From NCBI GenBank assembly GCA_016713525.1, contig JADJOZ010000001.1, forward strand, positions 716,225-780,224: a stretch of DNA of 64,000 nucleotides, read 5' to 3'. This DNA comes from Bacteroidota bacterium. GTDB taxonomy: Bacteria > Bacteroidota > Bacteroidia > AKYH767-A > OLB10. How positions within the stretch are numbered: position 1 is the stretch's first letter; the number at the start of each line of letters is the position of its first letter. Both the position numbers and the translations under genes were made by a program. Under the pieces are notes generated by a model, which searched no databases, was not told the origin of the DNA, and saw only the letters and a list, made by a program, of their open reading frames with translations. Of this stretch, positions 12,715 to 56,893 are shown piece by piece.

Positions 12715-13757
12715 ATGAAAAATATAAGTTTTATCATTCTCATTTTTATTGGTAGCGTAATCAATTCGTTTGCTCAGGGGAACTTAACCATTCCTGATCA
12801 AAGCCAAAAGGCCGGAGTTTCGCAGCGAATAGGTTTAACCGACATTGAAATTCATTATAGTAGTCCGCTGGTGCGTGCCAGAAGCATCTGGGGAGATGTA
12901 GTTCCCTTTGGTGAGGTTTGGCGTGCCGGTGCAAATGAAAATACCACTATCAGCTTTTCTACAGATGTTATAGTTGGTAATATTCAGGTTCCTGCGGGCA
13001 AATATGGACTACATATGATTCCAAGAAAGATAAATGGACCATTATTCTGTCGAAAAATGCCAGTTCCTGGGGTAGCTTTTTTTTATAATAAAGAAGAGGA
13101 TATGGTAAGGTTTGAAGTTGAACCATTGACTCGTGATTTCCAGGAGTGGCTTAGTTACAGGTTTACAGATCCAAAACCCGGAGCCGTAAATGTGACCATG
13201 AATTGGGAAAAAATTGCTATTTCATTTCCAGTCTCCATTAAGATTCAGCAAACAGTTGTTGCAAGCATGCGAAATGAATTACGCGGAGTTGCGGGATTCA
13301 CCTGGCAAGGTCCATGGCAGGCGGCCGATTATTGCATGACTCACAACATTTACCCGGAAGAAGCAATGCAATGGATTGATCAGTCATTGGCTGTTCAGGA
13401 AAATTTCCACAATCTGGAAACGAAATCATTGATCCTTGCTAAGGCCGGAAAACAAACTGAATCGGCGGAACTGCACGCCAAAGCAATTGCTGTTGCCAGT
13501 GAAACACAACTAAATACACATGGGTACAAAATGCTGGGAAATGGCGATTTGAACGGTGCTGTAGAAATATTTAAACTCAATATCAAACGAAATCCTAATT
13601 CCTGGAATGTGTACGACAGTTATGCTGAAGGTTTACTCATGAAGGGTGATAAAAAGGTGCCATCAGCAACTATCAGATAGCATTATCGAAAGCCCCGGAA
13701 GCACAGAAGAATCGAATTACAACACTAATCAATAATATTAAATCGGATATCAAATAG
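12715..13757 (+). CDS. DUF2911 domain plus TPR protein. Three indels: a compensating pair internally and one that truncates the C-terminus.
   Basis: N-terminal DUF2911 pattern (IEIHYSSPLVRAR...GEVWRAGANENT...GKYGLHMIP). The track frame reads RKINGPLFCRKMPVPGVAFF, whereas the +2 frame gives the canonical KDKWTIILSKNASSWGSFF(Y). Frame is restored inside the T8 run at 13077-13084. A further shift near 13642-13649 reveals a typical TPR ending KKGAISNYQIALSKAPEAQKNRITTLINNIKSDIK with the stop at 13755-13757. Confidence 0.6.
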
Positions 13758-13902
13758 CGACACCAGACACACACCAAACATTAAATCGGCAGCATTCCCT
13801 GAACACACCAGGGAAAGCGAAGTGAGCCGGCCTGAATATTGAATTTGCTAAAACACACACACAACCATATGCAATTCATTAACCACACCAAAACCAGGGC
13901 CT

Positions 13903-14767
13903 ATGCGACAGCTAAAGATTACAAAATCTATTACCAACAGGGAGAACGCCTCTCTGGAAAAGTACCTTCAGGAGATCGGACGTGAGGATCTGATCAATGC
14001 CGAAGAAGAAGTAAAGTTAGCACGAAAAATTCGTGCCGGCGATCAGGCTGCACTTGAAAAACTTACCAAGGCGAATTTACGTTTCGTAGTTTCTGTTGCC
14101 AAGCAATACCAAAACCAGGGACTCAGTTTACCCGATCTTATTAATGAAGGGAATTTAGGACTAATCAAAGCGGCAAAACGATTTGATGAAACCCGGGGTT
14201 TTAAATTTATTTCCTATGCTGTTTGGTGGATCCGGCAGTCAATTATGCAGGCACTTGCCGAACAATCCAGAATAGTGAGGTTACCCATTAACCAGCTTGG
14301 ATCGGTCAATAAAATTAAAAAAGCATTTTCTATTCTTGAGCAAAAAGTTCGAACGGGAACCCAGCAACAGTGAACTATCAATCGAGCTGGAAGTACCTGA
14401 AGAAAGTGTTGCCAATACGATGAAAATTTCCGGTAAGCAGGTAAGTGTGGATGCTCCGTTTGTAGCAGGTGAAGAACATAGTTTGCTCGATGTACTGGAA
14501 AATCCTGATTCACCATTAGCCGATAATGTGCTTATGAATGAGTCACTGCGTCAGGAAATTAACCGTTCACTGTCAACTCTCACACAACGTGAAAGTGATG
14601 TGGTGAAGTTATTTTATGGCATCGGCTGCAATCATAGTTTTACACTCGAAGAAATTGGTTCTAAATTCGATCTGACCAAAGAAAGGGTACGACAAATTAA
14701 GGAAAAAGCTATTCGCAGATTGCGACACAATTCGCGAAGCAAACTCTTAAAAACTTATCTGGGATAA
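13903..14767 (+). CDS. rpoD: RNA polymerase primary sigma factor (sigma-70, RpoD/SigA), single-base frameshift
   Basis: Track ORFs 13903-14373 and 14297-14767 are the N- and C-halves of one sigma-70 protein (regions 2-4: [18 protein letters not shown]...; [29 protein letters not shown]). Removing one A from the A5 run at 14342-14346 gives a continuous [14 protein letters not shown]. Confidence 0.85.
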
Positions 14768-17398
14768 TCAGAGCTTCTTTAATCGGATTACTTCTTCTTT
14801 CAATAATTTCACGGATATTTCGCAGGCTTTTTTAAAGTCATCGAAAACTGCCGGAATGCGTTCTGTATGGATCTGATCTCTTGAAAATTCTTCCAGTTCA
14901 GCCACCAGATTATGCAGGATATTGATTTTTAAAAGATTTACCGATGATTTCAGTTTGTGTACTGCCTGAAACGTAGCAGGCCAGTTTTGTTGACGGATAT
15001 GATCTTCCGATTCACCTAAAAGCTGAGGTATCTGCCCAATGAGCATGTGCAACAGACTCATCACATCTTCAGTGCTACCACTGAATAACAAAATTAATTT
15101 TTCAGATGAATTTCGTATATCCTCAACCGTTATACTGCTTTCATTGGGGGCAGGAGCAACTTCGGCAACTTTTGGCTTTCCATTTACCTGCTTCAGAATA
15201 GTAGTCAGTAATTCGTGCGGGCTGTACGGTTTGGTTATATAATCCGACATTCCTAGTGCAAGAGCCTTTTCCTTTTCGTGGTTACTGGCATAAGCAGTAA
15301 GGGCTATGATTGGAATTTGATTAACCGGATGGGGTAGTGTAGTTCTGATGACCTGTGTGAGCTCATATCCGTTCATCACCGGCATTTGAACATCCATCAA
15401 TATCACGTCAAATTTCCCGGCCTGTAAACTTGCCACTGCTTCTGTACCATTATTGGCAATTTCAACCTGAAAGCCCATTTTATTGAGCAGTTTTTGTGCA
15501 AGAAACTGATTGACCTTATTGTCTTCTACCAACAAAATTGTGACATCCGATAAATCGTTTAGAGGGATTTTACTGCCGGCTTTTTTGCCACCGGTAGTTT
15601 TTTCTAATTTCTTCAATAACTTGAATGGCAGCTCCACTTTAAAAACGGATCCGCTTCCTAATGTACTGTTTACGGAAATGGATCCACCCTGCAATTGTAC
15701 CAGTTGCTTAACAATGGTAAGTCCCAGTCCGGTGCCGCCAAATACCCTGTTTTTATCGTAATTAGCCTGAGTAAAACTATCGAAAATAGAATGAATTTTA
15801 TCTGATGAAATACCTATACCGGTGTCGGTTACCTTGAATAAAATTTTAATGGTGAGGTCATGCGATTCCACCAGTTGCATATCGAGAGAAACGGAACCCT
15901 TATCAGTAAATTTCACACTGTTGTTTAACAGGTTCAGCAGAATCTGATTTAAGCGAACCGCATCACCAATAAGTAATTCAGGCAGGTTATCGTCGATAGT
16001 TAGATTAAGCTTGATTTTCTTTTCTTCAGCTTTCACTTTTAATACCTGTACCATTCCTGTCAGTAATTCCTTGATACGGAATTCACTGCTTTCAAAACGG
16101 ATTTCACCGGAATGAATTTTTGAATAATCAAGGATGTCATTGATGATTACAATGAGATTATTCGCTGATAACTTAATGGTATTGATATACTCAAGCTGCT
16201 CAGGAGTAGGGTTGGTATCGGCAAGTAAATTGGCCATTCCCAAAACACCATTCAGCGGTGTGCGAATTTCGTGACTGATATTGGCAATAAACTGATCTTT
16301 AAGTAAAACAGTTTTCTCAGCCAGTTCTTTCTCTTTCAGGGTTTCTTCCAAATCGTAGCGCAACTGAATACCTTTGGTTTTCAGAACCACTTCTTCATTC
16401 ATCAGTTCGCCGGAAAGGGAGTTGAAGTTTTTGTAATGTAATAAGGCATTCCGGTAATCGCCGGCTTTTTCATAAGCATCAGCGAGAAAACGGTGAATTA
16501 AATTTTTAGGATATTTTACCTTTAAAGTCTCAGCAATCTGAAGCGATTCGGTAAGAATAGAAATGGCTTTGGTGTATTCACCGGTTTCAATGTAAAGGTT
16601 ACCCAGACTCTTCAACAGGTCGGCTTTCAGAATAACATTACCGGTGATATTTACATAATCGATTGCCTTGAAAAAATAATCGAGTGATTTATCGTATTCT
16701 TTGAGTTTGGTAAATAGTATGGCCAGACTACCTGTTGGTTTAACCTGAAGTTCCGGATTACTTAATGAATCAGCCTGAGTTAAGCTGCGGTCAAGATATT
16801 CATAGGATTTATCGAGATCATCGGCCCAGTTGTAGCAATTACCGATGTAATAATTGGTAATTGAAACCATAGACTCATTTCCGGATTCAGCAAAAATGCG
16901 AAGTGCCAATTCATGATTTTCGATTGCTTTGTTGTAATCGGTTAAGGCCTTGTAAATTTCTCCAAGTCTGTTATAAATAGATCCTTTTAAAGAAACATTT
17001 TCCGAATGACGGGCAAAATTCAGTGCTTTCAGTTGTGATTCCAGAGCTTCCTGATAATTTCCAATGCGGAAACAAATATCACTGATTGCTTGTTCCGATT
17101 CACAGGCACGCAAAGGTGCTGCGATCCGTTCGTACAAAGCAGTAGCTTCATGAAGGAGTGACAGTGCCTGTCGGGTATTACCTTTTTCATTCTGGATGTT
17201 TCCCAGCTCCAGCAAACATTCTCCTATTCCCGTTGAAAATTGGGCGTTTTTGGCCAGATTGAGTGCTTTTTCAAAAAATTCCTCCGATTGCATGAGGTCA
17301 GCATCCCGCAAAGTGCGAGCAGTCTCAATGAGGTGAGAAATTACTTCTTCCCCATTAATTGCCTCATTTACAGCAATTTTATCATTACTTCCCTGCAT
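14768..17398 (-). CDS. hybrid sensor histidine kinase / response regulator with N-terminal TPR sensor region and C-terminal HPt
   Basis: TPR repeats, HisKA (ANISHEIRTPLNG), HATPase (GTGLGLTIVKQLVQLQGG), a receiver domain (LLVEDNKVNQ...MDVQMP) and an HPt-like tail. Confidence 0.85.
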   Translation of the reverse strand: MQGSNDKIAVNEAINGEEVISHLIETARTLRDADLMQSEEFFEKALNLAKNAQFSTGIGECLLELGNIQNEKGNTRQALSLLHEATALYERIAAPLRACESEQAISDICFRIGNYQEALESQLKALNFARHSENVSLKGSIYNRLGEIYKALTDYNKAIENHELALRIFAESGNESMVSITNYYIGNCYNWADDLDKSYEYLDRSLTQADSLSNPELQVKPTGSLAILFTKLKEYDKSLDYFFKAIDYVNITGNVILKADLLKSLGNLYIETGEYTKAISILTESLQIAETLKVKYPKNLIHRFLADAYEKAGDYRNALLHYKNFNSLSGELMNEEVVLKTKGIQLRYDLEETLKEKELAEKTVLLKDQFIANISHEIRTPLNGVLGMANLLADTNPTPEQLEYINTIKLSANNLIVIINDILDYSKIHSGEIRFESSEFRIKELLTGMVQVLKVKAEEKKIKLNLTIDDNLPELLIGDAVRLNQILLNLLNNSVKFTDKGSVSLDMQLVESHDLTIKILFKVTDTGIGISSDKIHSIFDSFTQANYDKNRVFGGTGLGLTIVKQLVQLQGGSISVNSTLGSGSVFKVELPFKLLKKLEKTTGGKKAGSKIPLNDLSDVTILLVEDNKVNQFLAQKLLNKMGFQVEIANNGTEAVASLQAGKFDVILMDVQMPVMNGYELTQVIRTTLPHPVNQIPIIALTAYASNHEKEKALALGMSDYITKPYSPHELLTTILKQVNGKPKVAEVAPAPNESSITVEDIRNSSEKLILLFSGSTEDVMSLLHMLIGQIPQLLGESEDHIRQQNWPATFQAVHKLKSSVNLLKINILHNLVAELEEFSRDQIHTERIPAVFDDFKKACEISVKLLKEEVIRLKKL

Positions 17399-21183: not shown

Positions 21184-21227
21184 GGAAAGAAAAATAAAAA
21201 GACAATTATTCTGAGTGCTTTCATAAA

Positions 21228-22285: not shown

Positions 22286-24611
22286 TTAACGTATTAGAGT
22301 TACATTGCCTTTTTTAAAGAATTTTTCATTGCCGAAGCAGGTTATTTCCAGATAATAAACATACACTGCCGGAGTAGCAAGCTTGTCTTTGTATTTTCCG
22401 TCCCATCCTTTTTTCGGATCGGTAGTTTCAAAAACTTTCTCGCCCCAGCGATCATACACACGGAATAGTAATTCTTTGATAGTATTACCTCTTACATAAA
22501 GCACATCATTATTCTGATCACCATTTGGGGTAAATGCATTTGGGATGAATAATTCAGGTTCTTCACACAATACTTGTTTAATTACAAGCGAAACCGAGTC
22601 AATGTTGGAGCAGCCATTACTATCGGTAATGGTTACATACCAGGTAGTGTTTTCATCGGGAGTAACCACAGGATTTTGAATAGCCGGATTACTGAGGCCG
22701 GCAACCGGAGTCCATGAATAAGTAAAATTACCTGTTGCAACGGCGTTTAGAATTACCGTTTCACCATCAAAAATGGTGTCGCTGGAAATGGTGGCATCAA
22801 GCGGCGGAATAAATGATGAGAACAACACTTCAACACTATCTGTGTAGCTACAATTATTATCATCGGTAACAGTTGCGGTATACCAGCCGGGACATAATCC
22901 GGTGGCTACTGTTCCTGTTTGTTGCTGCGGATCATTCCAGTTAATGGTATAAGGAGTTGTGCCTCCCGTAAGATTAATGGTGGCGCTACCAATACACAGT
23001 CCGTTACAGTAGGCATCTGTTGCATTAATTGTTGCTGCCAGGGGTAACGGATTTGTTATAACAGACGTGGTTGTTGTACTGCAGCCTGTGGAATCTGTGA
23101 TGGTAACAGTATAGGTTCCTGCACACAGACCAGTGGCTGTAGCCGATGTTTGTGCAGCCGGATCATTCCATAAATAGATTAATGGTCCGTTGCCATTGGT
23201 GACATTTACAGTTGACTGGCCGTTGCATTCACCGGCACATCCTGCTTGTCCGTTGGAAGCAATTGCTGCAATTTTTGGCGGAATAATTATAGTTTGACTA
23301 ATTGTTTTTCTGCAACCCCTTGCCGATTGAGCCTGCAAAATCACATTATAAGTTCCGGGGCCGGGGAATGTGTGAGTAGGGTCGGTGGTATTTACCAGTG
23401 GGGAACCATCACTGAAGTTCCAGCTCCATTGCGATGTTGCTCCACTGGCCGTGTTGCTGGTGTCATCGAATGTTACTGAGAACGAACATGGATTTAAATT
23501 GTAACTAAAGCCTGCCTGATAAGCAGGTAATAATGTTACTTCACCCACGGTAGTATCGGCACATGCCGGATTGAAAATGGAGTAGGCGATAAGTGTTACA
23601 TTATAGGTTCCTGTATCGGGATAAGTGTAGGCAGGATTGACCTGCAAAGAAGTATCGGCCAGTGTTGTAGGATCACCAAAATTCCAATTATAGGATATCG
23701 CACCAAAACTATTATTGGTGAATTGCACAGAATTGCTTCCACAGGTTAAAACGGGGGTCTGCAAAGCAGCAACTACGAGGGTGGGACATGGTTCCACATT
23801 TAACTGATAATCGCGGCGGGTTTTGGAAAGCAATACACCATTACGGTATTCATTAACGCAAACACCAATTACAAACTGACCAATGGTATTGGGACAGGTT
23901 ACTCAAATTGTATGGAGGTTGAAAAATAACATTCTGGAAGGGTGGTGCATAGCTGTTTATGGTGTTTTGATCGAGAATAGGAATATTCTGATCGGCACCA
24001 TCATAGGGATTACATATTTCATAAACCAGTGAATCGCCCTGCTGATCGATTGCGGAGTGATCGAAGACGAAATCCAGACCTGCACAAATGAATGGTGGTG
24101 GCAACTGTGTAAAAACCGGGTTGCTGTTTACGGCCGGTGAACCGGGAATAGTTGCGTAGGCAGTAATTCCAACATTCAGTGGATTTACAATATTGTTGAT
24201 GGTCTGATTCCGGCAACATCGCTGATAACCTAACTGATATCCTCCCGGACGTGGAGGAAGTGTTATCGTTCCGGAATACCTCGCAAATTCGTAGCATACA
24301 TCGACAGGAGGAATGAAACAAGGCGAATTGATGATGGGAGGAATGGTATCGGAAGCAATAATTGGCAGATAAAGATAAGTGATTAGAGTATTGTTGGCGT
24401 CCCAGATTCCAATAAAAGCGGGGTTATCGAATGGAGGAACTCCATTGTAACAGTCGCGGTAAACAGTAAGGTTTATCTGGTATATATTATTTCCATTATA
24501 TCTATAATACAGCTCACCTCCAACAATATGCGTTGCAAAAAGTTGAAATTGGGACAGGAGAAGAATAAAAAACAGAATTAATTTACGGGCCATAAATAAG
24601 TCGCGAGCCAC
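22286..24611 (-). CDS. T9SS type-B CTD cargo protein (SprB repeats), frameshift near 23853-23905
   Basis: Track ORFs 23853-24611 (signal peptide plus ATHIVGGELYY N-terminal domain) and 22286-23833 (TTG start, SprB repeats, C-terminal FTPNGDQNNDV...RWGEKVF CTD) lie in different frames. The downstream frame stays open back to 23900, giving ...CPNTIGQFVIGVCVNEYRNGVLLSK. Confidence 0.7.
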
Positions 24612-24704: not shown

Positions 24705-25316
24705 TCACCTGACTTTGACTGTCAACAGGTGCATTTCACCAATAAATGCCTCCAGCAGATCGCCTTTCACAACAGGGCCAACTCCTTTAGGGGTTCCGGT
24801 AAAGATAAGATCACCTTTTTTGAGAGTGAAATATTGTGATACGAAAGCAATGATAGTATCAATTTTGAAAATCATGTCGGATGTATTTCCCGATTGCACC
24901 AACTGACCATTCTTTTTGAGTGAAAAATCAATTTGCTGAACATCTTCAAATGACGATTTATCGACGAATTTCCCTACAGGAGCGGAACCATCAAAACCTT
25001 TTGCCAGCTCCCAGGGTAATCCTTTTGCCTTCAATGATGCCTGCAGATCGCGTGCTGTGAAATCGATACCAATGCCGATTTCTTCATAGTATTTGTGAGC
25101 AAATTTTTCCTGAATATTTTTACCAAGTTTGCAGATTTTCACCACAATTTCGGTTTCGTAATGAATATCGGCTGAGAAGTCGGGCAGGAAAAAGGCTGCC
25201 TTTGCTGATTCTGGGCTGTTTCAGGTTTCAGAAAAATTACCGGTTGTTCATTCACCGGATTGTTGAGTTCTTTGGCATGTTCTGCATAATTCCTGCCAAC
25301 ACATATTATTTTCATG
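24705..25316 (-). CDS. fumarylacetoacetate hydrolase (FAH) family protein, frameshift near 25195-25215
   Basis: N-terminus [34 protein letters not shown] reads from an ATG at 25316, whose ATGA overlaps the GT2 stop. After a 1-nt shift it continues [27 protein letters not shown] into track ORF 24705-25145, which ends [15 protein letters not shown]. Confidence 0.7.
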
Positions 25317-26295: not shown

Positions 26296-26532
26296 CAGCT
26301 TTTCCCATTCCAGTTAAGAATAACAACAGCAGTTTTCAAATGCAGTATTTATTGGTCAAAAATAGTGAAGCGCAAAATTAACAATCCCTGCTTCATACCA
26401 ATCAGGAAATCCGAAATTACATGGAATAATATACCAATGTTTGAAATAACCTTGTGATTGCAGGGGAGTTAGGGGTAATCTCACCCGTTTCCATCCTGCC
26501 AAAGCAGCTAAAACAATAAGCCTGTAAAATGA

Positions 26533-37494: not shown

Positions 37495-37509
37495 CACATT
37501 TTAATTAGT

Positions 37510-38909: not shown

Positions 38910-39089
38910 TTTGGTCTATATTAATTTAATAAATTATTCAATGCTAAATAATGGTACTTATTTTGGGTTTGAATTGAATTATGCAACCCAAAAAATGTAT
39001 AAAATTCTATATTCACCAGTTGATATTTCAGAGTTCCAAAATTATTTCTCTGGAACTGAGGATAATTAAGTAATTTGTCGCCTGTGCAT

Positions 39090-39707
39090 CTATCCAGCCC
39101 CATTCTGAGCCACATACTTTTCCGTACACACTTTAACATACTCCAAGCCTCCTCGCTTATCATCCCCACCGTGAAGGGAATTCTCACGGGGTTTAAAGGG
39201 GTTCAGAATATAATTCTTGTACCTGCAGTAGTCGCCTAATTTCTTTTTAAACTGCCGGGAATCACAGTACATCCTTTGTTTTGGGTAAATATCATAAAAG
39301 TGATCCGTGAGCTCCTTTCGGCTTATTTCCACGTTAAGATTGTTAGGATCTGAAAAGTAGGTATCTGCCCAATCCATAAATGACTCTCCGATATCCTGCC
39401 GGAGCTTTCTGGCTTGAATATTCTCAAATGGGGGAGACACTATCCCGAATTTAAAATAAAGCTTCAGACAGGTCGCCATGAGGTTGTAAAACAGATTCCA
39501 CTGGTCGAACTCCCATTCATCAAAGAAAAGCACTCCGAAATCGTCCACCGGTCGCAAATGTGGACCGTAATAGTCTGAAAAGACCATAAACGCCTGGCGA
39601 TCGCTGTGGCTGTATCCGGAGCCGGACAGGGCATGATTGGTTGTAAGGAAGATCTTGGGACTGTTGGTTAGAGTGAGTCGCTTGTCATATTTGCCTTCAA
39701 TTTGCAT
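39090..39707 (-). pseudogene. C-terminal fragment of a P4-type phage/plasmid primase-helicase (D5-like), remnant
   Basis: KIFLTTNHALSGSGYSHSDRQAFMVF...FFDEWEF resembles the region after the ATPase core of P4-family primases. The N-terminal primase and Walker A parts are absent. No flanking integrase. Confidence 0.3.
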
Positions 39708-39806
39708 TCTGCCGGTGATAAGAGGGAATAGGCAATGGAATTGAGGATGGAACCTTTGGAAAGGGGTGGGTTACTTAGGTTCATCAGGTGAAGTGGAAGT
39801 TAAAAT

Positions 39807-40750: not shown

Positions 40751-40769
40751 GACCTAAATATTTATATTT

Positions 40770-40982
40770 TTAAATTGGATCTAATCGTTCAAGCTCAAAT
40801 TCATTTGCATGTACAAAAGGCATGAATTCACCCTCAGCAATCTCAACAGGAATTAAAACAAAATCAAACCCTAGCAAAGGATAGATGTCATTTAAAAAAT
40901 GTTTTCTCGGTTTAATTTTATCTCCTTCAATGCTGTGTTTTATTCCTTTATACAGCACAATATCTCCTATTTTGTATTTCAA
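40770..40982 (-). CDS. hypothetical small protein immediately upstream of the TIR-like gene
   Basis: 70-aa ORF whose stop lies 20 nt before the TIR-like start. No recognisable domain. Confidence 0.3.
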   Translation of the reverse strand: MKYKIGDIVLYKGIKHSIEGDKIKPRKHFLNDIYPLLGFDFVLIPVEIAEGEFMPFVHANEFELERLDPI

Positions 40983-41378
40983 TTTTAGTAGAATTTTTAT
41001 GCAATATACGATTTTTAAAAGTAAAAAGGTATTTAGATAGTATCTTTTTGAAATCTAAATGCTGGAACTGAAGCTTACATTTGGCCTCGCTATCAAATAA
41101 TCTAAGTTGATTCATTTTGGTAAAATAGTATGTGTTTTAATAAATGCACAGTAATTTGCTCCACTTTATTTTTGGAACCATCATATTGGGAATTACTTTT
41201 CCGATTTGGAATTACAGGAATTTCATACCCTCACAACCAATCGAACTATTCATGTCCATATTTGTAAAAATTTATTTTATTTTTTTGAAATTTCAAATTA
41301 ACATTTCTGGTTGAATGAGATTTTCTGAATGGTGCGATTGAAACCTGGATATTAAAAATTATTAACTGATTCATAAAC

Positions 41379-42775
41379 TTAATTTTTAACAATAGCCTGA
41401 TTCGTAATTGACAATTTTTCAATTAAAGCCAATGTTTGTCTGTATTCAGCTGCCTCTGAAAGTTTTGTGAATTCTATTTCAGCATTTGTTGTTGTGAGAA
41501 TGAATTTTTCTAATTCATCCAATGTAATTTTGAAAAATTCTTTTCGATAATTAATTTTATTTAGTCTTTGGTTATCGAATTGTTTGTGAATTTCGTATTC
41601 CAATTGTGGTGCATTTTCAGAGTAAATTATTGCATGTACATCGAAATGGAACGGTACAGAGGCATCACCTAATTCCTTAACGCGCTCTTTAGGGTCAAGT
41701 CTACGGGTCATGCCAATTTTGTAAACATTTTCGCCAAATGCACCAATGTTAGAAACAACATATATGTGACCTACTTTTGTTTGCTGAGCCATTGATATTG
41801 CTCTGTCTTTGCGTTCGTGTGCCAATTGTAATTCGGCTTCTAATTGAGCAATTTTTTCCAGTAATTCATTCTTGTTATCAATAAGTCCGGATTCGAGTTG
41901 CTGTTTTGTTTTTTCAATTTCCTTTTCAAAGACTATTTCATCCTGTTCAGCAGATTTTTTTGCACGTTCTAACTCACGTAAAGCACGTTCTTCCTCCTTC
42001 ATCTGTTCTTTAAGACGTTTTTGCTCCTCTTTCTCTTCATATTTTTTTGGAGTTCATATTCATAGGTCAATGCTAATTCTTCAAGTTTGCATTCTAGGAA
42101 GGATTTGGTGACATAAATTTCATGACTTGAACCCAAGGTATTTACATTTTCATAAATCTTGACGATACGTTCTTTGGACTTTTCTATATTGTTCCATTTG
42201 ACTTTTGATATAATTGCTTCACATTCCCCATTAAATGCGAAGATCATAAGTTTTTCATACTGCTTCGTCATTTTTTTTCCTTCAGATTGACTACCACCTA
42301 CCACCCATTGCCTGTCACATTTTGCACCAGCACCTTGTTTAATTAGAAGTCTCTGCTTTTGATAATTTAATTCTAATTTTTCTGAATATTGTGAGCTTAC
42401 TTCAAAGTTAAATTGAGGTTGATATACGCCATAAGTTCCAAGTTCCAGTGTATCTTGAAACAATTCGATTTCCTTCCTCATTTTGGAAATATCTTCTGAA
42501 GTTGCATCAAATGTGCTTTTCTGACCTTCAAGTTGCAATTTTAAATCTTTGACCTTTTCTTCAAATGAATTTATTGATTCAGACATTTTTGCTAATGGTC
42601 CAAATTGAATTATGTGTTCTTTCAATTTGTCCACTTCCAAATAAGCAGAATCTTTTTCTAAATTTAAGCTGGTAATCTTTTTTCTCAAACTGCTTATTAT
42701 AATAAAAGCAACAATCGAAGTAAGGACAATTCCGATTCCTAAGCCGAACAAAGTATGTGTTTGATCATCCATCAT
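41379..42775 (-). CDS. DUF4041 plus T5orf172 (GIY-YIG-like) domain protein, frameshift in homopolymer at 42043-42049
   Basis: Track ORFs 41999-42775 (TM, coiled coil, DUF4041-like) and 41379-42002 (T5orf172-like: VGHIYVVSNIGAFGENVYKIGMTRRLDPKERVKELGD...) are one gene. Adding one A to the A7 run on the coding strand gives a continuous ...YELQKKYEEKEEQKRLKEQMKEEERALRELERAKK. Confidence 0.7.
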
Positions 42776-43105
42776 TATAGTAGTTTACAGGTATTTAATT
42801 CTCGGAAAGTATAAATTTAATATCTAACCAAACCAAGGGTTTTCCCTATTTTTTTCAAGGGTTTTCCCGCAATTTCCTTCTGTAAACTTCGGTTTTGTTG
42901 CATTTTGGGAATTATTATTAATGAACCATTTAGGACGTTTTCATTTTAATGGAGTTAGATTATGAAAGTTTAGTCGTAGTTATTTTGGCGATTTGTGGAG
43001 TTTGCAGTTAATTTATGTGTAATGTAGTAAACAATCTTATAATTGCCTTTTCCAGTAAGATCCATTACTTTTAGTTCAATTTCATTTCAATTTAATACCG
43101 TAATC

Positions 43106-43453
43106 ATGATTAATTTTAAAAGGTTACATACAGCAGTCAAGAAAGCTGGTCGTTCATGGGAAAATGTTGGGCCTGTAATTGGTTTAACCGGTAATGGAAT
43201 GCGATATTCCATCAAAAATAGATCACTTTCATTGGTTAAATATGAAAAGTTATGCAAGGAGTTGAAGGTGCATCCGGCATTTATATTCCTTGAAAGCGAT
43301 GATTTAAGTGCTATGTTTTATAAGAAACGGATAACTGAAGTAGATTTGGGTAGTAGCCAGATTGCGATTTTAAAGGCTGAAAATGAGATGTTGAAAGAGC
43401 AAAATCGCAAGCTTCAAACCAGATTGATCGAATTGATTGACATCAAAAAGTAA
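43106..43453 (+). CDS. small HTH DNA-binding regulator with C-terminal coiled coil
   Basis: MINFKRLHTAVKKAGRSWENVGPVIGLTGNGMRYSIKN resembles a Cro/C1-type HTH. The C-terminus is a leucine-zipper-like coiled coil. Divergent from the DUF4041 gene. Confidence 0.4.
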   Translation: MINFKRLHTAVKKAGRSWENVGPVIGLTGNGMRYSIKNRSLSLVKYEKLCKELKVHPAFIFLESDDLSAMFYKKRITEVDLGSSQIAILKAENEMLKEQNRKLQTRLIELIDIKK

Positions 43454-43604
43454 GTTCCGCAATCGAACCATTAATGAAATTACACATACTTTTTTTTTAT
43501 TTACATTAGCGTTTTGAACTTCGGTACAGGACAGGTTAATGATTGTTTAAAACCAGTTCTACGATCCTTAATTCCAAAATGGAGTCTTAAAAATTAATTA
43601 CCAA

Positions 43605-43955
43605 ATGATCTACAAATTCAAACTAACCACTTATAGAATTATAGGAGCAATTCTTGTTTTACTCGGGTTGATTGGATACCTGACTATAGCAGATGAATTC
43701 CGACACTATAATGAATTTCTTGGAGTGACCTGTGTACTGGTTTCCGGTCTGGTTTTGTTGCTTATTGACTTTAGATTTCATTTATTTCAAAAAGTTGAAC
43801 TCCAGTGGCTCTCTATTTGCCTGTTAGCATGTATACCCCTTGGAGGTGTTGTCCTTGATAATATGCCGATCGGTATGTGTATAGGATTTATTTCAGGAAT
43901 TTCAATTGCTATTATTTTGGGAAAGGTTAATGTGACCAAATCAAGTCAATCGTAA
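43605..43955 (+). CDS. hypothetical membrane protein (4 TM)
   Basis: 116-aa hydrophobic ORF. Confidence 0.35.
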   Translation: MIYKFKLTTYRIIGAILVLLGLIGYLTIADEFRHYNEFLGVTCVLVSGLVLLLIDFRFHLFQKVELQWLSICLLACIPLGGVVLDNMPIGMCIGFISGISIAIILGKVNVTKSSQS

Positions 43956-44111
43956 AAAAATAGCGTAATAATTGATCCCATGTCACCAATCCATCAAAAT
44001 TACCATGAACTTAGCTGATCGTTTTTTATTCAGTTGACCAAGTTTAATAAGCTCTTTATTATCCGTATTAAGGCATTTTTCTGTTGCAATTGATCTCAAA
44101 ATGATTATCTT

Positions 44112-44486
44112 GTGAAAAATAATGTATTTATGAAAGTCATGGTCCAAGCTGAATCTATAAGCAAATTGATGCAATATCAGCTCCACGAGCGGGTTTATCC
44201 TTCCTGGGTGTTTGATGAGAGTACCTTGCTAATAATTGATGCCAATCAGAGTGCACAAGATTTTTGCAATTATGAGGGTAATGAGTTAATTGGATTAAGT
44301 ATTACGGAGCTTTGGAAAGACGAGGACTTGAGTGATATCATTCATGATCTGGAGATGCATAGTTCGGAGCGATCATTTTATGGTAATCTGAAGCATACCA
44401 AAAAGAATGGTGACGAGGTGATAATGCGTGTACGTGCCACGCGACAACTTAATCCAAAAACACTTTGGGAAGTACATTTAGTATGA
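44112..44486 (+). CDS. small PAS-domain protein
   Basis: LLIIDANQSAQDFCNYEGNELIGLSITELW...HTKKNGDEVIMRVRATRQL is PAS-like. Confidence 0.4.
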   Translation: MKNNVFMKVMVQAESISKLMQYQLHERVYPSWVFDESTLLIIDANQSAQDFCNYEGNELIGLSITELWKDEDLSDIIHDLEMHSSERSFYGNLKHTKKNGDEVIMRVRATRQLNPKTLWEVHLV

Positions 44487-44755
44487 TTTGACTCTCTATT
44501 TTGCGTTAGGGATTGAGCCAGGTACCGTGTACCGGTGAAAGCCCGCCCCGAAGGGGAACGCCCAAAGAGCGAAAAGCATCCAAAGAATAGAAACTCTAAA
44601 ATTGACTAAAACCTGCTGTGCAGTGATTCCGATTTTTACTTTTTTGTACTACATTTGATGCAATATATCTTACCATGCATCTTGTGCTGATTGCGGTATT
44701 TGGTTGTTATTCAATGAGATATAAAGGTATCAAAGGTTTAGGCCGGATTTAAGGG

Positions 44756-45859
44756 ATGATTTCGAATATGGTAAGAAGAATGGTGTGCATCGTGATTTTG
44801 ATGATGGCATTTTATCCGTTGAAGGCTCAGTTTACCTATGAAATGGTGCCACTGGAAGTATTGGATACTATTTTTGATAAGTCGGCAATTGATAAGCTCA
44901 GAAATGAGCAACTGCATTACCTTTCTCCTGATTATTTTACGGTTGGAGTGTATAAAAAAAGCGGCGGACTTTGTTTGATTGCCCGCGAAGGGAATCACTG
45001 GCTGGCTATGAGTTTGCCCGCTGACAATTCGATGGAGAACAAAAAACTTCAGTACAATGGTACTTATATTTTTTATGAAACCTTTTTTACGCATGCATCG
45101 AGAGGGATATCGGGTTCGTATGGCAATTTTAATTTGATTGATCCGACAAGAAAAACATGCGTGGAAGTGCCTGTTACCGTTAACATGGAAACTTATGATA
45201 CTGATTCAGAAGATGCAATTGGACATGAAACTTCTTGTGATTCGAAGGTGATTTTGCAAAACAACGAATTGCATGTTGTAAGTTTTAGCTCCGGTAACAG
45301 CGATTGCATACAGAGTGGTGTTTATAGAATAGAGGATCGTGAATTGAAGAAGATTAAACATTTGGATGAATCGCGTTATGCCATGGTTGATGTGCGATGG
45401 GCTGGTAAAATAGCGACCTACATGAATTTGGATGAAGTCAAAACTGCCTATGGTTACGCAACAGTGGAGCCGGTCACCGACAGCTACAGTAATTGTGCAG
45501 CCGGTGAAGTGGTTGCTCAACAGATTACCTGGGGAAATGATACTCTGGCGGTGGTGTTGCTAAATGCCGATGATTTACAACTTGTGCGGACAATAATTGT
45601 GCTATCGGATAAGATTCCATTTGGCAAAGTGCATAAAGGATTAACTGCTAAGGAACTTTTTCAGCTATATCCGAAAGAAAAATTGCATGCAGATTTACTG
45701 AGTGATGATGAGTATATTTATCTGGATGATTTACAAATTAAAGTCGTGTTTAAAACAACGGAAGCGAACAGGGTAGGGAAGTATGATGATGAGGAATACA
45801 AAGGCTTGAAGCGACCTGATGCCGTGATAGATTTTATTGAAGTTAATTACCATGGCTAA
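44756..45859 (+). CDS. hypothetical secreted protein
   Basis: Signal peptide (MMAFYPLKAQ). 367 aa. No recognisable domain. Confidence 0.45.
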   Translation: MISNMVRRMVCIVILMMAFYPLKAQFTYEMVPLEVLDTIFDKSAIDKLRNEQLHYLSPDYFTVGVYKKSGGLCLIAREGNHWLAMSLPADNSMENKKLQYNGTYIFYETFFTHASRGISGSYGNFNLIDPTRKTCVEVPVTVNMETYDTDSEDAIGHETSCDSKVILQNNELHVVSFSSGNSDCIQSGVYRIEDRELKKIKHLDESRYAMVDVRWAGKIATYMNLDEVKTAYGYATVEPVTDSYSNCAAGEVVAQQITWGNDTLAVVLLNADDLQLVRTIIVLSDKIPFGKVHKGLTAKELFQLYPKEKLHADLLSDDEYIYLDDLQIKVVFKTTEANRVGKYDDEEYKGLKRPDAVIDFIEVNYHG

Positions 45860-46534
45860 ATACAAACTTATTTTTGTACTTTTTTTGGTGGTAATGGTCG
45901 CGGTTGTCAGGCACCGAAAACTACGGAAGAAGCTGCAAACGGATCGGATTCAACGGCGAGTTCGGATGTGGTGTTGATTGATTCAGCAGCATCCGGCATG
46001 AATGCATCGGTAAGTGATTCTGAACAGGAGCAAAATGTTATAGAGGTTCAAGACACTGTTATCGTGAAAAGCAAAGTATTTGAAGTCAATAAGCTAAAGT
46101 GCTATTGGGAATACACGGCTGAGCGTTTGATTCGAGTGAAAGATCAGGAACATAATTTACGGATTATACAAATGCAGTTGAAGGAGGCGGGAAAAGAACG
46201 GGTGTTATTTACACCGGAGAATTCACCTGATTTGGCAAATACATTTTATAGTTTGACAGAATTAGAAAATAATGGTGATTATGTTATCAGTTGCGAAGAC
46301 AAAAATGCGGATTCGTGGTGTGATTATGAGATCTTGTTTGAGCGTGCAGCAGCTGGAGCAAATACGTCAACCAATGTATTTTTATTTGATCCGAAGAGCA
46401 GCAAATTTGAGTATTCGCAATTATTCAGCGGTACGAACATGGAATATGACAAAGATAAAAACATGATTAAGACATTCTGGAAGATGAGTGTGGATGACTA
46501 TGTGTTGACCTATACCTACTTTGACGGCAGATAA
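45853..46534 (+). CDS. hypothetical lipoprotein, probable frameshift near 45899-45908
   Basis: An ATG at 45853 overlaps the previous gene's stop (ATGGCTAA) and gives MAKYKLIFVLFLVVMVA. A 1-nt shift continues GCQAPKTTEEAANGSDSTASSDVVLIDS into track ORF 45968-46534, producing a lipobox VAGC. Confidence 0.4.
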
Positions 46535-49572: not shown

Positions 49573-52500
49573 ATGCGTAAATTACTACTTGGCCTGGGAA
49601 TGACCTTCCTTTCAGGTTCCATGATGGCCCAAAATCTTGTTGGCCGCGAAGCTGAAAAATTTCATCCTGCTGCACAATTCGTGCGATTTGATGACCGTAC
49701 ACCGGCACCATTATTTGTATCGTTCCGTGACAACAGTTATGTTCCGGCATCGGCAACTACTGCCATCATGAAAGAAGTTTTACAACTTTCTACAAATGAC
49801 AGCTGGCAATTAATTCGCACCGATCATGATGAACTGGGCATGCAGCACCACCGGTATCAGCAATTCTACAAAGGTATTCCTGTTCAAACCGGTGAATATA
49901 TTGTGCATGAGCAACAAGGTGTGATTAAATCCATGAATGGTGTTTGTTACAAAACCCTTCCGGTAGCTACCAATCCCGTAATTGGAGAGTCGGAAGCATT
50001 GGATCGGGCCTTGAAAAACATCGGTGCATCAGTTTATTTGTGGGAGACTCCGGATGCGGAGCAAATTGCTTTAGTTGGACATTCACATGGCAAAGATCGT
50101 CCGAAGGGAGAACTGGTTATTTTGCCTTCTTTAGGATTTGAAAAAGGACAAACGACTTCACTTTGCTGGAAGTTCGATATATACGCTCATGAGCCACATC
50201 AGCGATATAATGTTTACATCAATGCCGAAACTGGCAAAATGATGTTTAAAGAAAGTCGCATCTGCACTTTTGCTGCGAATGGTTCAGGTAATACACGTTA
50301 CAGCGGATTGCAATCATTTACTACTGATTCAATAGCACCAGGCAGCTATCGTTTACGGGATGTTACCAGAGGTGGTGGTGTTGAAACATATGATTTGAAT
50401 AATGGTACCAATTATGGTACAGCTGTCGATTTTACCGATGCCGATAACTTCTGGAATACTACCACCAATCAGGATGATGCTGCATTGGATGCACATTGGG
50501 GAACCCAGATGACTTACGATTATTATTTCCAGACACATGGCAGAAACAGTTACAACAATGCCGGTGCTGTACTTCGTTCCTATGTTCATTACAGTTCCAA
50601 CTATAACAATGCCTTCTGGAATGGTTCACAAATGACTTATGGTGATGGAAATGGATCAACCTTTTCACCACTCACCGAACTGGATGTGGTTGCACATGAA
50701 TTAACACATGGAGTGACTAACTTTTCATCTAACTTAGTTTATTCTTATCAGTCAGGTGCATTAAATGAATCATTCAGTGATATCTTCGGAATCACAGTTG
50801 ATTTCTTTGCACGTCCCGGTACTGCAAACTGGTTATTGGGAGATCAGTGTTATACACCCGGTACACCCGGTGATGCATTGCGTTCTATGAGCAATCCAAA
50901 TTCAGCGGGTGATCCCGATACTTATTTGGGAACTAACTGGTACACCGGAACCGGAGATAATGGTGGTGTTCATCAGAATAGCGGCGTACAGAATTACTGG
51001 TATTACCTGTTAAGTATTGGTGGATCGGGAACCAATGATGTTGGTTTCAACTTCAATGTTACCGGAATTACCATCGCCAAAGCACGTATGATAGCCTATA
51101 GGAATAATACATTTTACTTAACATCATCATCTCAATACAGTGATGCAGCATTTTATTCCTTACAGTCTGCAACCGATTTGTATGGTAACTGTTCACCTGA
51201 GGCAGTATCCGTTAAAAATGCCTGGGATGCTGTTAATGTAATGGGATTACAAATAAATGCTAACCTGGTTGTGTCTGCAAGTCCGGTTTGTTTAGGTGGC
51301 CCAATTCAACTTAACGCTGCAGGTGGTGTTTCTTATTCATGGACTGGTCCGGGTGGATTTACTTCAACATCAGCAACTCCGGTAATTCCTGTTGCAACAT
51401 CCGGTACTAATGGCGTTTATACCTGTACAGTTACAGATGCTAACGGATGTTCAGGCAGTAAATCAGTGACTATTGCTGCAAATCAGTCTCCAACAGTTAG
51501 TGTTAGCGGAGCATCACCAATTTGTTCAGGCTCATCAGTGAATCTTTCTGCTACAGCAGCAGTTTCGGGTTCAGGAAGCAGTACCGGTTCAAACAGCACC
51601 GATATTGCAATTCCAGATGCCAATCAAACAGGTATTTCGTCTACGATTGCCATCGGACAATCAACAAGTGCTGCTTCAATTATTTCTGTTACCATCGATA
51701 GTTTGATTCACCCTTATGTAGCCGATCTTACTTTGCGTCTTATTGCTCCAAACGGATCATTCATAAATCTTGCTTCCGGAGTAGGAGGGGCAGGTGATAA
51801 TTTTTATGGAACAGTATTTACTTCATCGGCCACTACAGCTATTGGTTCAGGCACGGCACCATTTACCGGTAATTTCCTTCCACAATCACCATTCAGCAAC
51901 CTGACAGGTTCCGCAAATGGTACATGGACATTAAACGTAATTGATGGCTTCGGACAAGATTTAGGAACACTTTCCAAATGGTCGATTGCTCTAGCTCCAA
52001 ATACCATTATTTCATATAGCTGGTCACCATCAACCGGATTAACAACCACAACAGGTGCTACTACATCAGCATCTCCAACTTCTTCTACAACTTATACCGT
52101 AATTGCAACCGATGTTTTAGGATGTACAGCATCTGCAACTGCAGCTGTTGATGTTTCCAATATTGAAATTACCGGTATCGTAACTAATCCGCTATGTCCG
52201 GGAGGAAACGGAACAATTGATATCAGTCTTGCCGGAGGCAGTGCGCCATATACCTACAATTGGAGTGATGGAAGCACCAATGAAGACCTTCAAAGTACTA
52301 CACCCGGATTTTATACTGTAATCGTTACTGATGCTGCAGGGTGCTCTGTTACGTTTGTCAGACAACTTACTTCACCGGCAGCATTCAGTGTTGGTATATC
52401 GGCTTCTGATGCCACCTGTGGCAATAATGATGGTACCTTCACCTCCGGGACCTGTTTCGGGTCCTGCCGGAGCATGCCGAAATCAGAATAACGTTACCTT

Positions 52501-54843: not shown

Positions 54844-55587
54844 CTAAGGGATTTTCAACGGCCCGAAGGAACTTATCATTTCCTTCAATACCTCCGGTTT
54901 GAGTAGTTTTATTCTCTTACCTACCAGTGAAATTAGTCCTTCCTTATTAAACGCCGATAAAGTGCGGATTACTTCTTCTAATGAACTTCCTGTTATATCG
55001 GCGTAATCCTGACGAGGCAATTGCAATCCCAGATAATCAACCCCTTCAAAGTGCTCTGGTTGAAAAATTTCATTGATGGTGAGAAGAGCATCAGCAAGTT
55101 TTTGTCGTGCCGACATTTGTGATAAAGAGCGCAATTTGTATTCCGCTCTTCGTAATTCATCGGCATAAAAATTCAATAATTCAAAAACCAGATCCCCATT
55201 ATTTTTTAAAGTCTCTTTGAAAGTTTTCTCGGGAATAAAACAAACGGTTGCGGGTGATAAAGCAGTGGCTCCAATGGGATAAATTTTCGAGCTGCCAAAT
55301 CCCCTGTGACCAATAAGATCTCCGGATTTAGCAAGTCTCACAATTGGAGTTGTGTTTGTATATCCGGAAGTAAAAACCTTGAACTGTCCCTTATAAATAA
55401 AATAAATTCCATTAACTGGATCGCCTTCGCGAAAAAGATCATCATGCTTCTTAATTCGGAGTGCCACCCTCTTTTTATCGATAGCTGATTTCCATTCAGC
55501 GGTAGTAAATCGATTGATGAAGCAATTTTGTGAATCGCATGTTTTGCAATGGGGAAGAACCATAAGTAGATTGAACTGTAAATTCAA
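54844..55587 (-). CDS. Crp/Fnr family transcriptional regulator (N-terminal Cys cluster, cNMP-binding domain, C-terminal HTH)
   Basis: CKTCDSQNC N-terminal cysteines, a cNMP-binding beta-roll (GDLIGHRGFG) and C-terminal HTH YADITGSSLEEVIRTLSAF. Confidence 0.7.
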   Translation of the reverse strand: MNLQFNLLMVLPHCKTCDSQNCFINRFTTAEWKSAIDKKRVALRIKKHDDLFREGDPVNGIYFIYKGQFKVFTSGYTNTTPIVRLAKSGDLIGHRGFGSSKIYPIGATALSPATVCFIPEKTFKETLKNNGDLVFELLNFYADELRRAEYKLRSLSQMSARQKLADALLTINEIFQPEHFEGVDYLGLQLPRQDYADITGSSLEEVIRTLSAFNKEGLISLVGKRIKLLKPEVLKEMISSFGPLKIP

Positions 55588-55679
55588 AGGTACAAATTTG
55601 ATTTGGAGATAAACAAAAAGTATTGTAAAGACCTGAATATTAGTATTTTAATATGTGTCAAAATTGATTGATGAAAAAT

Positions 55680-56893
55680 TTATTTAGTGCCAGTTTCAGC
55701 TTTTAAGTTTCCTACCAGTATCAATATCAACCCACTTAACATAAGTGAAGAAATAAGAAGAAGTGAGACATCCGCAAATGGAATGACTGTATATGAAAAG
55801 GATGCCAGACCCTGAATAAGCAGCACCATTTCATTGAGAAAAATTCCTCCAATAAAAATCATAATCCCATTTCTGACATATTTATTATTCCGGATCAGCT
55901 TATTTAAATATATGTACCCTAACAGAAATACAGAAATGACTCCAAGCAATACCAAATGAAGATAAGCAATTACAATTGTCCGGAATCCGAAAGCCAGTTT
56001 ACTGATTTCCGGAATTACAGAGCCGGCCTGAAGCAACAATTTAATAGTGAGTGCAACTCCGGCAAATTGTAAAAGCACTCCCGATAATGGATTCAAATGT
56101 TTCTGGATTTCTTGTTTATTCGATAGTAAAAACGAATCATCAGGAACCATGCAATTAGCTGTGCAATGGATGCTACAACTACTAATACATAAATCCAATT
56201 GGAAACCGGTACCCACAATACCGATAGGAAGTAAGCAGGAATACAGGCAAGTGCAAAGATTGGAAATGTATATTTTGGGAGTTCCTTTTCGGGAAGTACT
56301 TTGGATAACCAATCGGTAAAGAGACCCATACAAGCAAAGAAAAACCAGCCATTGTACTGGAAATGCAGGTAATAGTAAACAGACCCTAAATAATGATGTT
56401 GTGTAATGTTTTTATGAGACATCATATATGCAAGGTAAAAAGTTCCTGCTGCTGATATGATATTAAAAAATAAGGCTGCTTTAAACCAGGGTGCACCTGC
56501 AGATTTGTCGTTCTGACGGAAATAAAACAGGGCAAATAGCCATGATACAATAATGGAAGACGTAGAAAAAAACAACGATATAATTCCATATCCCTGAATG
56601 GCGAAAAATACCAGCATTCCATAGGCACATATTAGGTTGGCATAAATCAATATTACACCTGATCGTGATTCAATAAATGGTTTATTTAATCTGTAAACAA
56701 GTAAAGTCATTAAAGCATGACTTACCCATCCTGCAAAAGCAAAATGCGAATGGGCATGTAACAGATTTTTCTGATCAAAGAAAGGAAATTCAAAACCAAT
56801 TTTGTATCGCATTAAAATACCCAGAGAAGCGATAATTGCCAGATTTAAAATGGCAACATTAATAAGCGACCGGTAATTCGTTTGGAGTTGCAT
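55680..56893 (-). CDS. NnrS-family heme-copper membrane protein, frameshift in A5 run 56128-56132
   Basis: Overlapping track ORFs 56093-56893 and 55680-56333 are one ~400-aa polytopic protein with conserved His (HAHSHFAFAGW). Adding one T on the coding strand gives a continuous ...IAWFLMIRFLLSNKQEIQKHLNPLSGVLLQF. Confidence 0.6.

Follow-up and report, generated by a model that had tools for sequence, protein, structure and literature searches.

Interrupted genes in a 64-kb Bacteroidota window, rpoD included, are very probably consensus errors of a low-coverage Nanopore MAG

The 64,000-nucleotide stretch of DNA analysed here (hereafter the window) contains a series of frame-broken genes, including that for the sigma factor RpoD. 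With high confidence, we interpret these as consensus errors of a low-coverage Nanopore MAG and reject real gene decay as their cause. The true genes of the organism, rpoD among them, are almost certainly intact. The finding is a data-quality warning and novel biology is absent from it.

Interrupted genes and their intact counterparts

The original prediction held that single-base indels, mostly in homopolymers, break at least ten genes. All ten of the loci that it named are indeed broken relative to conspecific genomes of 98-99% nucleotide identity, eight of them by the gain or loss of one nucleotide in a short run of A or T (in one case C) and two by mid-size deletions (Table 1). Run lengths were judged from the assembled sequences of relatives rather than from raw reads, and the comparison covers the window from 4.7 kb onward. 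As had been anticipated for a comparison with close relatives, the single-base sites change length by one base, the two deletions being the exceptions. Intact versions are present in the relatives at every site: RpoD of 287 aa, DUF2911 of 347 aa, FAH of 203 aa, the T9SS cargo protein of 786-792 aa, the GT2 glycosyltransferase of 342 aa, the M4 peptidase of 1614 aa and a membrane protein of 404 aa.

Table 1. Lesions of the window relative to conspecific sequences. L003 is one of the conspecific sequences of the five-way alignment; JADJIL and JADJBQ (L011) are sister MAGs.
Position	Strand	Window	Relatives	Change	Locus and consequence
5703-5710		A8	A7	+1	PhoU_div-like gene; private in five-way alignment; coding position in L003
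7259		A1	A2	-1	ABC transporter gene, 5' end or upstream
9092-9099		T8	T7	+1	intergenic
9422-9429		A8	7 bases	+1	DUF3276 gene
9477-9481		A5	A4	+1	non-coding, just 3' of the DUF3276 stop codon
13026-13028		A3	A4	-1	DUF2911 (347 aa in relatives), first member of compensating pair
13077-13084		T8	T7	+1	DUF2911, second member of compensating pair
13651-13655		A5	6 bases	-1	DUF2911, altered C-terminus (321 vs 347 aa)
14342-14346	+	A5	A4	+1	rpoD (13903-14767), split into two 156-aa ORFs
21190-21194		A5	A6	-1	35 nt into 671-aa PD40-like gene; window ORF restarts at TTG, 657 aa
23893-23895	-	T	54 nt	53-nt deletion junction	786-792-aa T9SS cargo gene (PKD/SprB/CHU_C); window ORFs of 515 and 252 aa
25189-25193		A5	A6	-1	FAA-hydrolase (FAH) gene, 203 aa in relatives
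26300-26303		T4	T5	-1	40 nt into GT2 glycosyltransferase gene; window ORF of 327 aa vs 342 aa in relatives
29893-29896	+	A4	A5 (JADJIL)	-1	T9SS Por_Secre_tail protein, last ~12 residues altered (475 aa vs 479 aa in homologues); single comparator, itself error-prone
31463-45531					low-GC stretch with extreme indel density, vs JADJBQ (L011)
32027-32030	+	T4	T3 (L011)	+1	beta-propeller-like 550-aa repeat protein with Por_Secre_tail (31552-33205), split
39806-40750	-				TIR-like gene; L011 allele at ~39956, 40259-40263 and 40464-40467 restores 315-aa ORF
42042-42048	-	T7 on + (A7 in gene)		one base short	DUF4041/T5orf172 gene (41379-42775), split into 258 and 207 aa
45901	+	C1	CC	-1	263-aa lipoprotein gene, lipobox region
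46520-46522	+	T3	TT	+1	263-aa lipoprotein gene, C-terminus truncated
52433-52434	+	T	174 nt	173-nt deletion junction	1614-aa M4 peptidase/T9SS gene; window ORFs of 972 and 637 aa
56128-56132		A5	A6	-1	404-aa membrane-protein gene adjoining nos cluster; window ORFs of 266 and 217 aa
63779-63783		A5	A6	-1	intergenic

For instance, rpoD is represented by two overlapping ORFs (13903-14373 and 14297-14767), and removal of one A from the A5 run, exactly where a one-nucleotide correction had been predicted, yields a 287-aa sigma-70 protein that differs from the RpoD of relatives (L003) in a single residue (Q179H) and has the Sigma70 regions r1.2 to r4. In the DUF2911 gene the compensating pair was correctly recognized, while the third site lies about 8 nt away from the predicted 13642-13649. 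Several of the other single-base predictions required small adjustments. The FAH indel, placed at ~25195-25215, lies at slightly lower coordinates; the extra T of the beta-propeller-like gene is present, not at 32017-32020, but ten positions further on; and the T7/A7 run of the DUF4041/T5orf172 gene, given as 42043-42049, is shifted by one base. The lipoprotein lesion expected at ~45899-45908 corresponds to the change from CC to C, and the second site in this gene had been missed. The A5 run ascribed to NnrS is affected as predicted; however, the NnrS label is unsupported, with no Pfam family match. In the T9SS-B cargo (23853-23905) and M4 peptidase (~52441-52450) genes the predicted breaks are real, but instead of one-nucleotide indels they are deletions of 53 nt (at 23894) and 173 nt (at 52433), respectively.

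Additional sites had escaped the prediction. Within the range that it covered these are 21190-21194, 26300-26303, 29893-29896 and roughly 15 in the low-GC island, and outside that range 5703-5710, 7259, 9092-9099, 9422-9429, 9477-9481 and 63779-63783. The overall rate is about one per 2 kb, around three times the one per 6 kb that had been estimated.

The indel density is far higher in the low-GC island than elsewhere in the window: against JADJBQ, 67-70 indel events and 108-115 substitutions are seen in 14 kb. About 19 of these indel events are best explained as errors of the window, with the sites assigned by greedy ORF restoration, a heuristic, against this single and error-prone comparator; some of these sites, where the DNA probably does not code, may have been wrongly assigned, and such a comparison is blind to errors common to both MAGs. 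Here, the prediction of at least three sites in the TIR-like gene was borne out by the three corrections that restore its ORF, although this gene matches the Pfam TIR model weakly (E = 0.002, which misses the cut-off). Homologues of the DUF4041/T5orf172 protein are unbroken chains of 445-480 aa.

Probable provenance of the window and its sister assemblies

An 876-aa protein of the window is MBK7968017.1, and the window is very probably part of the MAG Fred_18-Q3-R57-64_BATAC.274 (JADJOZ000000000), which was assembled from Oxford Nanopore R9.4.1 reads; the sequencing chemistry and coverage ascribed to the window below depend on this probable identity. This MAG belongs to the Bacteroidota, order AKYH767-A, family OLB10, and originates from a Danish wastewater plant (Singleton et al., 2021; PMC8012365). 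Its entry in Supplementary Data 3 of that study gives an ilmcov of 3.99, an npcov of 12.45 and membership in dRep cluster 152_1, which also includes JADJIL and JADJBQ; it is reported as 95.9% complete with 0.95% contamination and a polymorphic rate of 0.016, and bears the flag SPREPHQ, which marks a species representative. The assembly pipeline comprised CANU, Racon, two rounds of medaka (model r941_flip213) and a final Racon step with Illumina reads (PMC8012365). With long-read coverage of about 12x and Illumina coverage of about 4x, polishing very probably left many wrong homopolymer lengths in the consensus, together with a few local deletions, and such residual errors would break ORFs on paper only.

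As is well documented, homopolymer indels persist in R9.4.1 consensus sequences and break up gene calls wherever polishing with short reads is insufficient (Sereika et al., 2022; PMC9262707). The window resembles these residual errors, as measured by IDEEL, in its one-base errors rising with run length, in its broken gene calls, essential genes included, in the aggravation by low depth of both long reads and short-read polishing, and in the independent appearance of such errors in sister MAGs of one pipeline. It departs from the classical pattern in its 53- and 173-nt deletions and in that some of the errors lie in very short runs (CC, TT, AA); the predicted placement of the errors at homopolymers stands, but not all of the runs are long.

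Sister assemblies of the same project have comparable lesions of their own. In JADJIL, rpoD is broken at a different T-run, along with the PhoU_div, Crp and nosZ genes; between JADJBQ and the window, about 70 indels are counted over 14 kb. Frameshifts of this kind are absent from the other conspecific assemblies (SPAdes-style ENA contigs, Logan and GCA_964269775.1). Sequence look-ups for a short-read contig of the identical strain found none; among them, exact-protein look-ups with the 876-aa protein, its database twin P0001 and the 158-aa ORF at 34209-34685 gave no record. In a search of genome contigs with a TPR/histidine-kinase protein, the matches listed were distant kinase relatives, and the species representative was not among them.

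Pattern of the indels and alternative readings

The two larger lesions call for separate consideration. Neither the 53-nt nor the 173-nt deletion is a homopolymer error, neither length is a multiple of three, and the two affected genes code for large secreted proteins with repeat domains, a class that is dispensable and often varies. It is therefore conceivable that the single-base indels are artefacts while one or both of these deletions are genuine strain-specific inactivations; some of the TIR-like/DUF4041 lesions of the defence island might belong here too. We consider it unlikely that even one of these larger lesions is genuine. Both deletions are private to an assembly already ridden with errors, and their odd common signature, in which one T stands in place of 54 or 174 nt and a search for direct repeats on either side found none, resembles low-coverage consensus or polishing drop-out more than two independent deletions. 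Moreover, their flanks are free of decay, with synonymous/non-synonymous changes of 3/0 in the cargo gene and 14/4 in the M4 peptidase gene. If such an inactivation were nevertheless real, the Fredericia strain would truly be without one of its secreted proteases, adhesins or defence genes.

The lesions are private to the window among 4-6 conspecific sequences, and none of them occurs in L001-L008 or L010. In a five-way alignment of the window with L001-L004, covering 22.6 kb (4.7-27.3 kb), the counts of private indel events and private substitutions are 12-13 and 127 for the window, as against 1 and 106 for L001, 1 and 55 for L002, 0 and 7 for L003, and 2 and 69 for L004. The one event of L002 is a scaffold gap. 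The number of substitutions in the window is normal relative to its relatives, and the clean relatives have no coding indels at all. At 46.6-64 kb, aligned by MAFFT with faster settings, the window-private events are the 173-nt deletion and those at 56127 and 63778; at 44.4-46.8 kb they are those at 45901 and 46520.

All 17 of the single-base events with at least three comparators are changes in run length, eight of them by +1 and nine by -1. At 4.7-27.3 kb the share of A/T runs that are altered rises steeply with their length (lengths 2-3, 1/2598; length 4, 3/208; length 5, 1/83; length 6, 3/29; length 7, 4/5), and none of the 1770 G/C runs is changed. As percentages these values are 0.04%, 1.4%, 1.2% and 10% for lengths 2-3, 4, 5 and 6, respectively; for length 7 the overall value is 33% (4/12). 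The density is uneven, in that four of the five A/T 7-mers are read as 8 at 4.7-27 kb and none of seven is wrong at 46.6-64 kb; we attribute this, putatively, to uneven short-read coverage. Coding DNA shows no depletion of indels: of the 14 single-base events, 11 fall in coding sequence, as against an expected 88%, the coding share of the A/T runs of length at least 4. Window-private codon changes in the corrected frame amount to 41 synonymous and 13 non-synonymous in broken genes and 228 and 77 in intact ones (odds ratio 0.94, p = 1). Thus, relaxed selection is absent from the broken genes.

These observations bear directly on whether the window might have undergone real and recent pseudogenisation on a massive scale, such as could arise by homopolymer slippage in a mismatch-repair-deficient hypermutator. 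Slippage mutations would likewise depend on run length, and their confinement to one terminal branch is what a very recent mutator burst would leave behind. This is nonetheless very improbable given that the essential rpoD is split, that frameshifts are equally frequent in coding and non-coding DNA, and that the substitutions on this branch are ordinary (127 vs 55-106 in relatives) when a mutator should raise transitions too. Further, the broken genes have no non-synonymous excess, and two Nanopore assemblies of the same project have their own unrelated frameshifts, in rpoD as well, with other conspecific assemblies having none. Reductive or host-restricted genomes, such as those of Mycobacterium leprae and Sodalis, spare their essential genes, carry lesions that recur in their close relatives, and display relaxed selection as well as further downstream decay. 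The window shares with them the many frameshift-interrupted ORFs but differs in all of these respects. Genuine genome decay was accordingly rejected as a candidate, as neither a raised non-synonymous ratio nor lesion sharing among strains was found.

Slightly less probable still is population heterogeneity or phase variation, whereby the consensus would have taken a minority or mixed allele at tracts that are really polymorphic in length. The polymorphic rate of the MAG is non-zero (0.016), and the region has strain-variable islands and a recombination tract. However, the affected tracts are short (1-8 nt, in most cases 4-8 nt) and do not vary in length among the other strains, and they include housekeeping and intergenic sites, which is not the pattern of contingency loci. 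Phase-variable contingency loci were also rejected in their own right, as no long simple-sequence tract polymorphic among strains was observed.

Finally, programmed recoding, in which +1/-1 ribosomal frameshifting or transcriptional slippage restores the frames in vivo, has a negligible probability: the A/T runs might be slippery, but conspecifics of 98-99% identity carry an ordinary uninterrupted frame at each of the sites, which leaves no conserved site and refutes this reading, and the changes go in both directions, occur in intergenic DNA and affect runs as short as 1-5 nt. Programmed frameshift sites, as in prfB, dnaX and the IS3 transposases, are conserved across orthologues; they share with the window a change of frame at a slippery run in a functional gene, but the orthologues of the window's genes are in frame. 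We know of no precedent for more than 30 programmed sites in 64 kb. Systematic homopolymer sequencing error, which the original prediction had favoured over decay, agrees with the private, run-length-dependent and coding-blind indels, with the absence of relaxed selection, with the indels of the sister MAGs and with the probable source, a Nanopore R9.4.1 MAG polished at only about 4x Illumina coverage.

Consequences for the use of the genome

The value of these results is practical only. The window very probably belongs to the species-representative MAG of an uncultured activated-sludge Bacteroidota lineage. Truncated fragments have already entered the public protein databases, as in the case of the 258-aa 'DUF4041 domain-containing protein' (P0122) from the window's contig. 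More generally, a MAG that passes 'high-quality' criteria can bear about one frameshift per 2 kb. The earlier caution that pseudogene calls in the window are unsafe and that corrected frames are needed is upheld. It extends to inferences on gene content, metabolism, domain architecture and defence systems, which are unreliable from this contig unless the frames are corrected against conspecific genomes; the genes to watch are the neighbours of the nos cluster, the T9SS cargo genes, the M4 peptidase gene and the TIR-like and DUF4041 genes.

Broken genes and lesions private to the window

The fragment pairs listed by the original prediction are all present in the ORF map: rpoD is split into two ORFs, and the T9SS cargo, M4 peptidase, DUF4041/T5orf172 and membrane-protein genes into fragments of 515 and 252, 972 and 637, 258 and 207, and 266 and 217 aa, respectively. 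In the rpoD DNA we could follow ...AFSILEQK in one frame and its continuation in the next, with the join lying, as predicted, at an A5 run; hence, the observation is real at this flagship site. The relatives have one intact gene in every case: RpoD (287 aa), DUF2911 (347 aa), the FAA-hydrolase FAH (203 aa), the cargo protein (786-792 aa), GT2 (342 aa), M4 peptidase (1614 aa) and the membrane protein (404 aa). Pfam confirmed the identities of RpoD, DUF2911 and FAH, and the corrected RpoD differs by one residue from that of L003. The label NnrS for the membrane protein is unsupported, as the corrected protein matches no Pfam family at E<=0.01.

These comparisons used conspecific DNA (98-99% nucleotide identity) fetched around three anchors: L001 (GCA_016719045.1), L002 and L008 (ENA MUNK22-1 scaffolds), L003 and L006 (GCA_964269775.1), L004, L005 and L012 (GCA_016706985.1, the sister MAG JADJIL), L007 and L009 (ENA contigs with SPAdes-style names), L010 (Logan ERR4678574) and L011 (GCA_016703655.1, the sister MAG JADJBQ). 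The intact TPR/histidine-kinase protein adjoining rpoD has many database relatives of 99-100% identity on long MAG contigs, and P0001 (MBK7968017.1) is identical to it. Its residues V135 and A170 are replaced by I and D in the eight conspecific 876-aa homologues examined (P0002-P0009), a difference that may genuinely mark the strain or reflect consensus errors of the substitution type.

A five-way alignment covering 4763-27342 assigned to the window 12 private indel events and 127 private substitutions, against 1 and 106 for L001, 1 (a scaffold gap with Ns) and 55 for L002, 0 and 7 for L003, and 2 and 69 for L004. Thus, the window branch is ordinary in substitutions while being about tenfold enriched in indels. 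The predicted indels were confirmed, with their extent understated: we find about one lesion per 2 kb rather than one per 6 kb, and between 12715 and 56893 no fewer than 14 genes are hit.

Coordinates of lesions, genes and other features in the window
Feature	Position	Description
rpoD ORFs	13903-14373; 14297-14767	156 aa each
rpoD frame join	14342-14346	A5 run
Run-length differences, window alone (five-way alignment)	5710; 7259; 9099; 9429; 9481; 13026-28; 13077-84; 13651-55; 14342-46; 21190-94; 25189-93; 26300-03	
Deletion, window alone (five-way alignment)	23894	53 nt; cargo gene
Hybrid kinase	14768-17398	876 aa; TPR/HisKA/response-regulator/Hpt
Shortened A run	29893-96	one A short vs JADJIL (L012); C-terminus of 479-aa T9SS protein altered
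Tandem repeat	31076-31315	88-nt unit, 2.7 copies, 85% identity; diverged copies from ~30970
Low-GC island	34685-43100; 31316-33239	30-35% GC; strain-variable
Extra T in T run	32027-30	550-aa repeat protein
TIR-like gene	39806-40750	window and JADJBQ
DUF4041/T5orf172 ('SNIPE') gene	41379-42775	window and JADJBQ
Right side, window alone	45901	CC>C
Right side, window alone	46520	TT>TTT
Right side, window alone	52433	173-nt deletion; M4 peptidase
Right side, window alone	56128-32; 63779-83	A6>A5
Membrane-protein gene	55680-56893	404 aa corrected; beside nos cluster
Divergent tract	~56900-58800	nosY, nosF, adjacent 139-aa gene
nos cluster	57287-63614	intact
Tract with zero differences	58800-63600	nosD, nosL, nosZ, cytochrome c; 4.8 kb

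Sequencing error and gene decay

The attribution of these frameshifts to systematic sequencing or assembly error, as opposed to gene decay, is supported by four lines of evidence. First, the lesions depend on run length: between 4.7 and 27.3 kb the A/T runs changed number 1/2598 at length 2-3, 3/208 at length 4, 1/83 at length 5, 3/29 at length 6 and 4/5 at length 7, with no change in 1770 G/C runs. Second, they are blind to coding: of 14 single-base events, 11 are coding, and coding DNA holds 88% of A/T runs of at least 4, and clean relatives show no coding indels among themselves. Third, there is no signal of decay, with window-private codon changes in the corrected frames of broken genes (41 synonymous, 13 non-synonymous) matching those in intact genes (228 and 77; odds ratio 0.94, p = 1). 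Fourth, the sister assemblies have errors of their own. JADJIL has no annotated rpoD, owing to a private 1-nt deletion (L004 ~13076) in a T-run equivalent to window 14317-22, distinct from the window's site. Its further private 1-nt deletions (L004 ~21937; L005 ~10640 and ~16800) break PhoU_div, Crp (60 + 165 aa) and nosZ (645 vs 659 aa). Hence, the frameshifts track the assembly project and not phylogeny.

The source of the data is consistent with this. JADJIL and JADJBQ belong to dRep cluster 152_1 (GTDB o__AKYH767-A; f__OLB10; midas_s_283), together with Fred_18-Q3-R57-64_BATAC.274 (JADJOZ000000000), a MAG of 36 contigs and 5.21 Mb (MaxContigBP 855503) with 3.99x Illumina and 12.45x Nanopore coverage that carries the species-representative flag (Singleton et al., 2021, Supplementary Data 3; PMC8012365). 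The project used Nanopore R9.4.1 reads, CANU 1.8, Racon and two rounds of medaka (model r941_flip213), followed by one round of Racon using Illumina reads (PMC8012365). Homopolymer indels persist in R9.4.1 consensus and fragment gene calls, and low-coverage bins require adequate short-read polishing (Sereika et al., 2022; PMC9262707). Errors are fewer in JADJIL (Illumina 7.9x) and many in JADJBQ (3.8x) and JADJOZ (4.0x). Indel density is uneven, with 4/5 A/T 7-mers wrong on the left versus 0/7 on the right; uneven short-read depth is a likely cause.

The cargo and M4 peptidase genes, predicted to need 1-nt corrections, proved instead to carry mid-size deletions that are not homopolymer errors, in which 54 and 174 nt (multiples of 3) are swapped for a single T. 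No direct repeats flank either deletion, and we regard both as low-depth drop-outs in the consensus or in polishing; it appears improbable that either is real.

The low-GC island and the nos region

The only other genome carrying the cassette of the island, here taken as 31.5-45.5 kb, is JADJBQ, from the same project. Over 14.1 kb the two differ by 108 substitutions but ~70 indel events, which implies that both are near raw-consensus quality here. Picking alleles greedily to maximise ORF length took the JADJBQ allele at 19/67 events and restored a 550-aa Por_Secre_tail repeat protein, a 315-aa TIR-like protein via three sites, as predicted, and a 464-aa DUF4041/T5orf172 protein. The lesion of the repeat protein is an extra T, in a run lying 10 nt from the position predicted. 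Among the best 120 of ~8000 DUF4041 homologues, both domains occur in one chain, mostly of 445-480 aa, in all except the window's own 258-aa fragment (P0122 in nr).

At the same place JADJIL carries another cassette, 6.3 kb long, that includes a DUF4145 protein, and that strain also lacks the 550-aa repeat protein; the island looks like a defence-island hotspot. The 88-nt tandem repeat sits within a 1.6-kb stretch without long ORFs; each unit contains a T-run preceded by the perfect palindrome AGCAACCAACC-TT-GGTTGGTTGCT, and resembles a terminator or REP-like element.

The nitrous-oxide reductase cluster encodes nosZ (659 aa, nos_propeller), nosL, nosD, nosF, nosY and a cytochrome c. The divergent tract has ~240 differences in 1.9 kb from L005, L006 and L007, and the tract with zero differences directly follows it; the former either was imported by recombination from a divergent lineage or reflects a chimeric consensus.

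The evidence supports the view that the window's frameshifts are a known sequencing or assembly artefact and no biological feature. Accordingly, this species-representative MAG and its protein fragments are unfit for inference of pseudogenes or domain architectures unless the frames are corrected.
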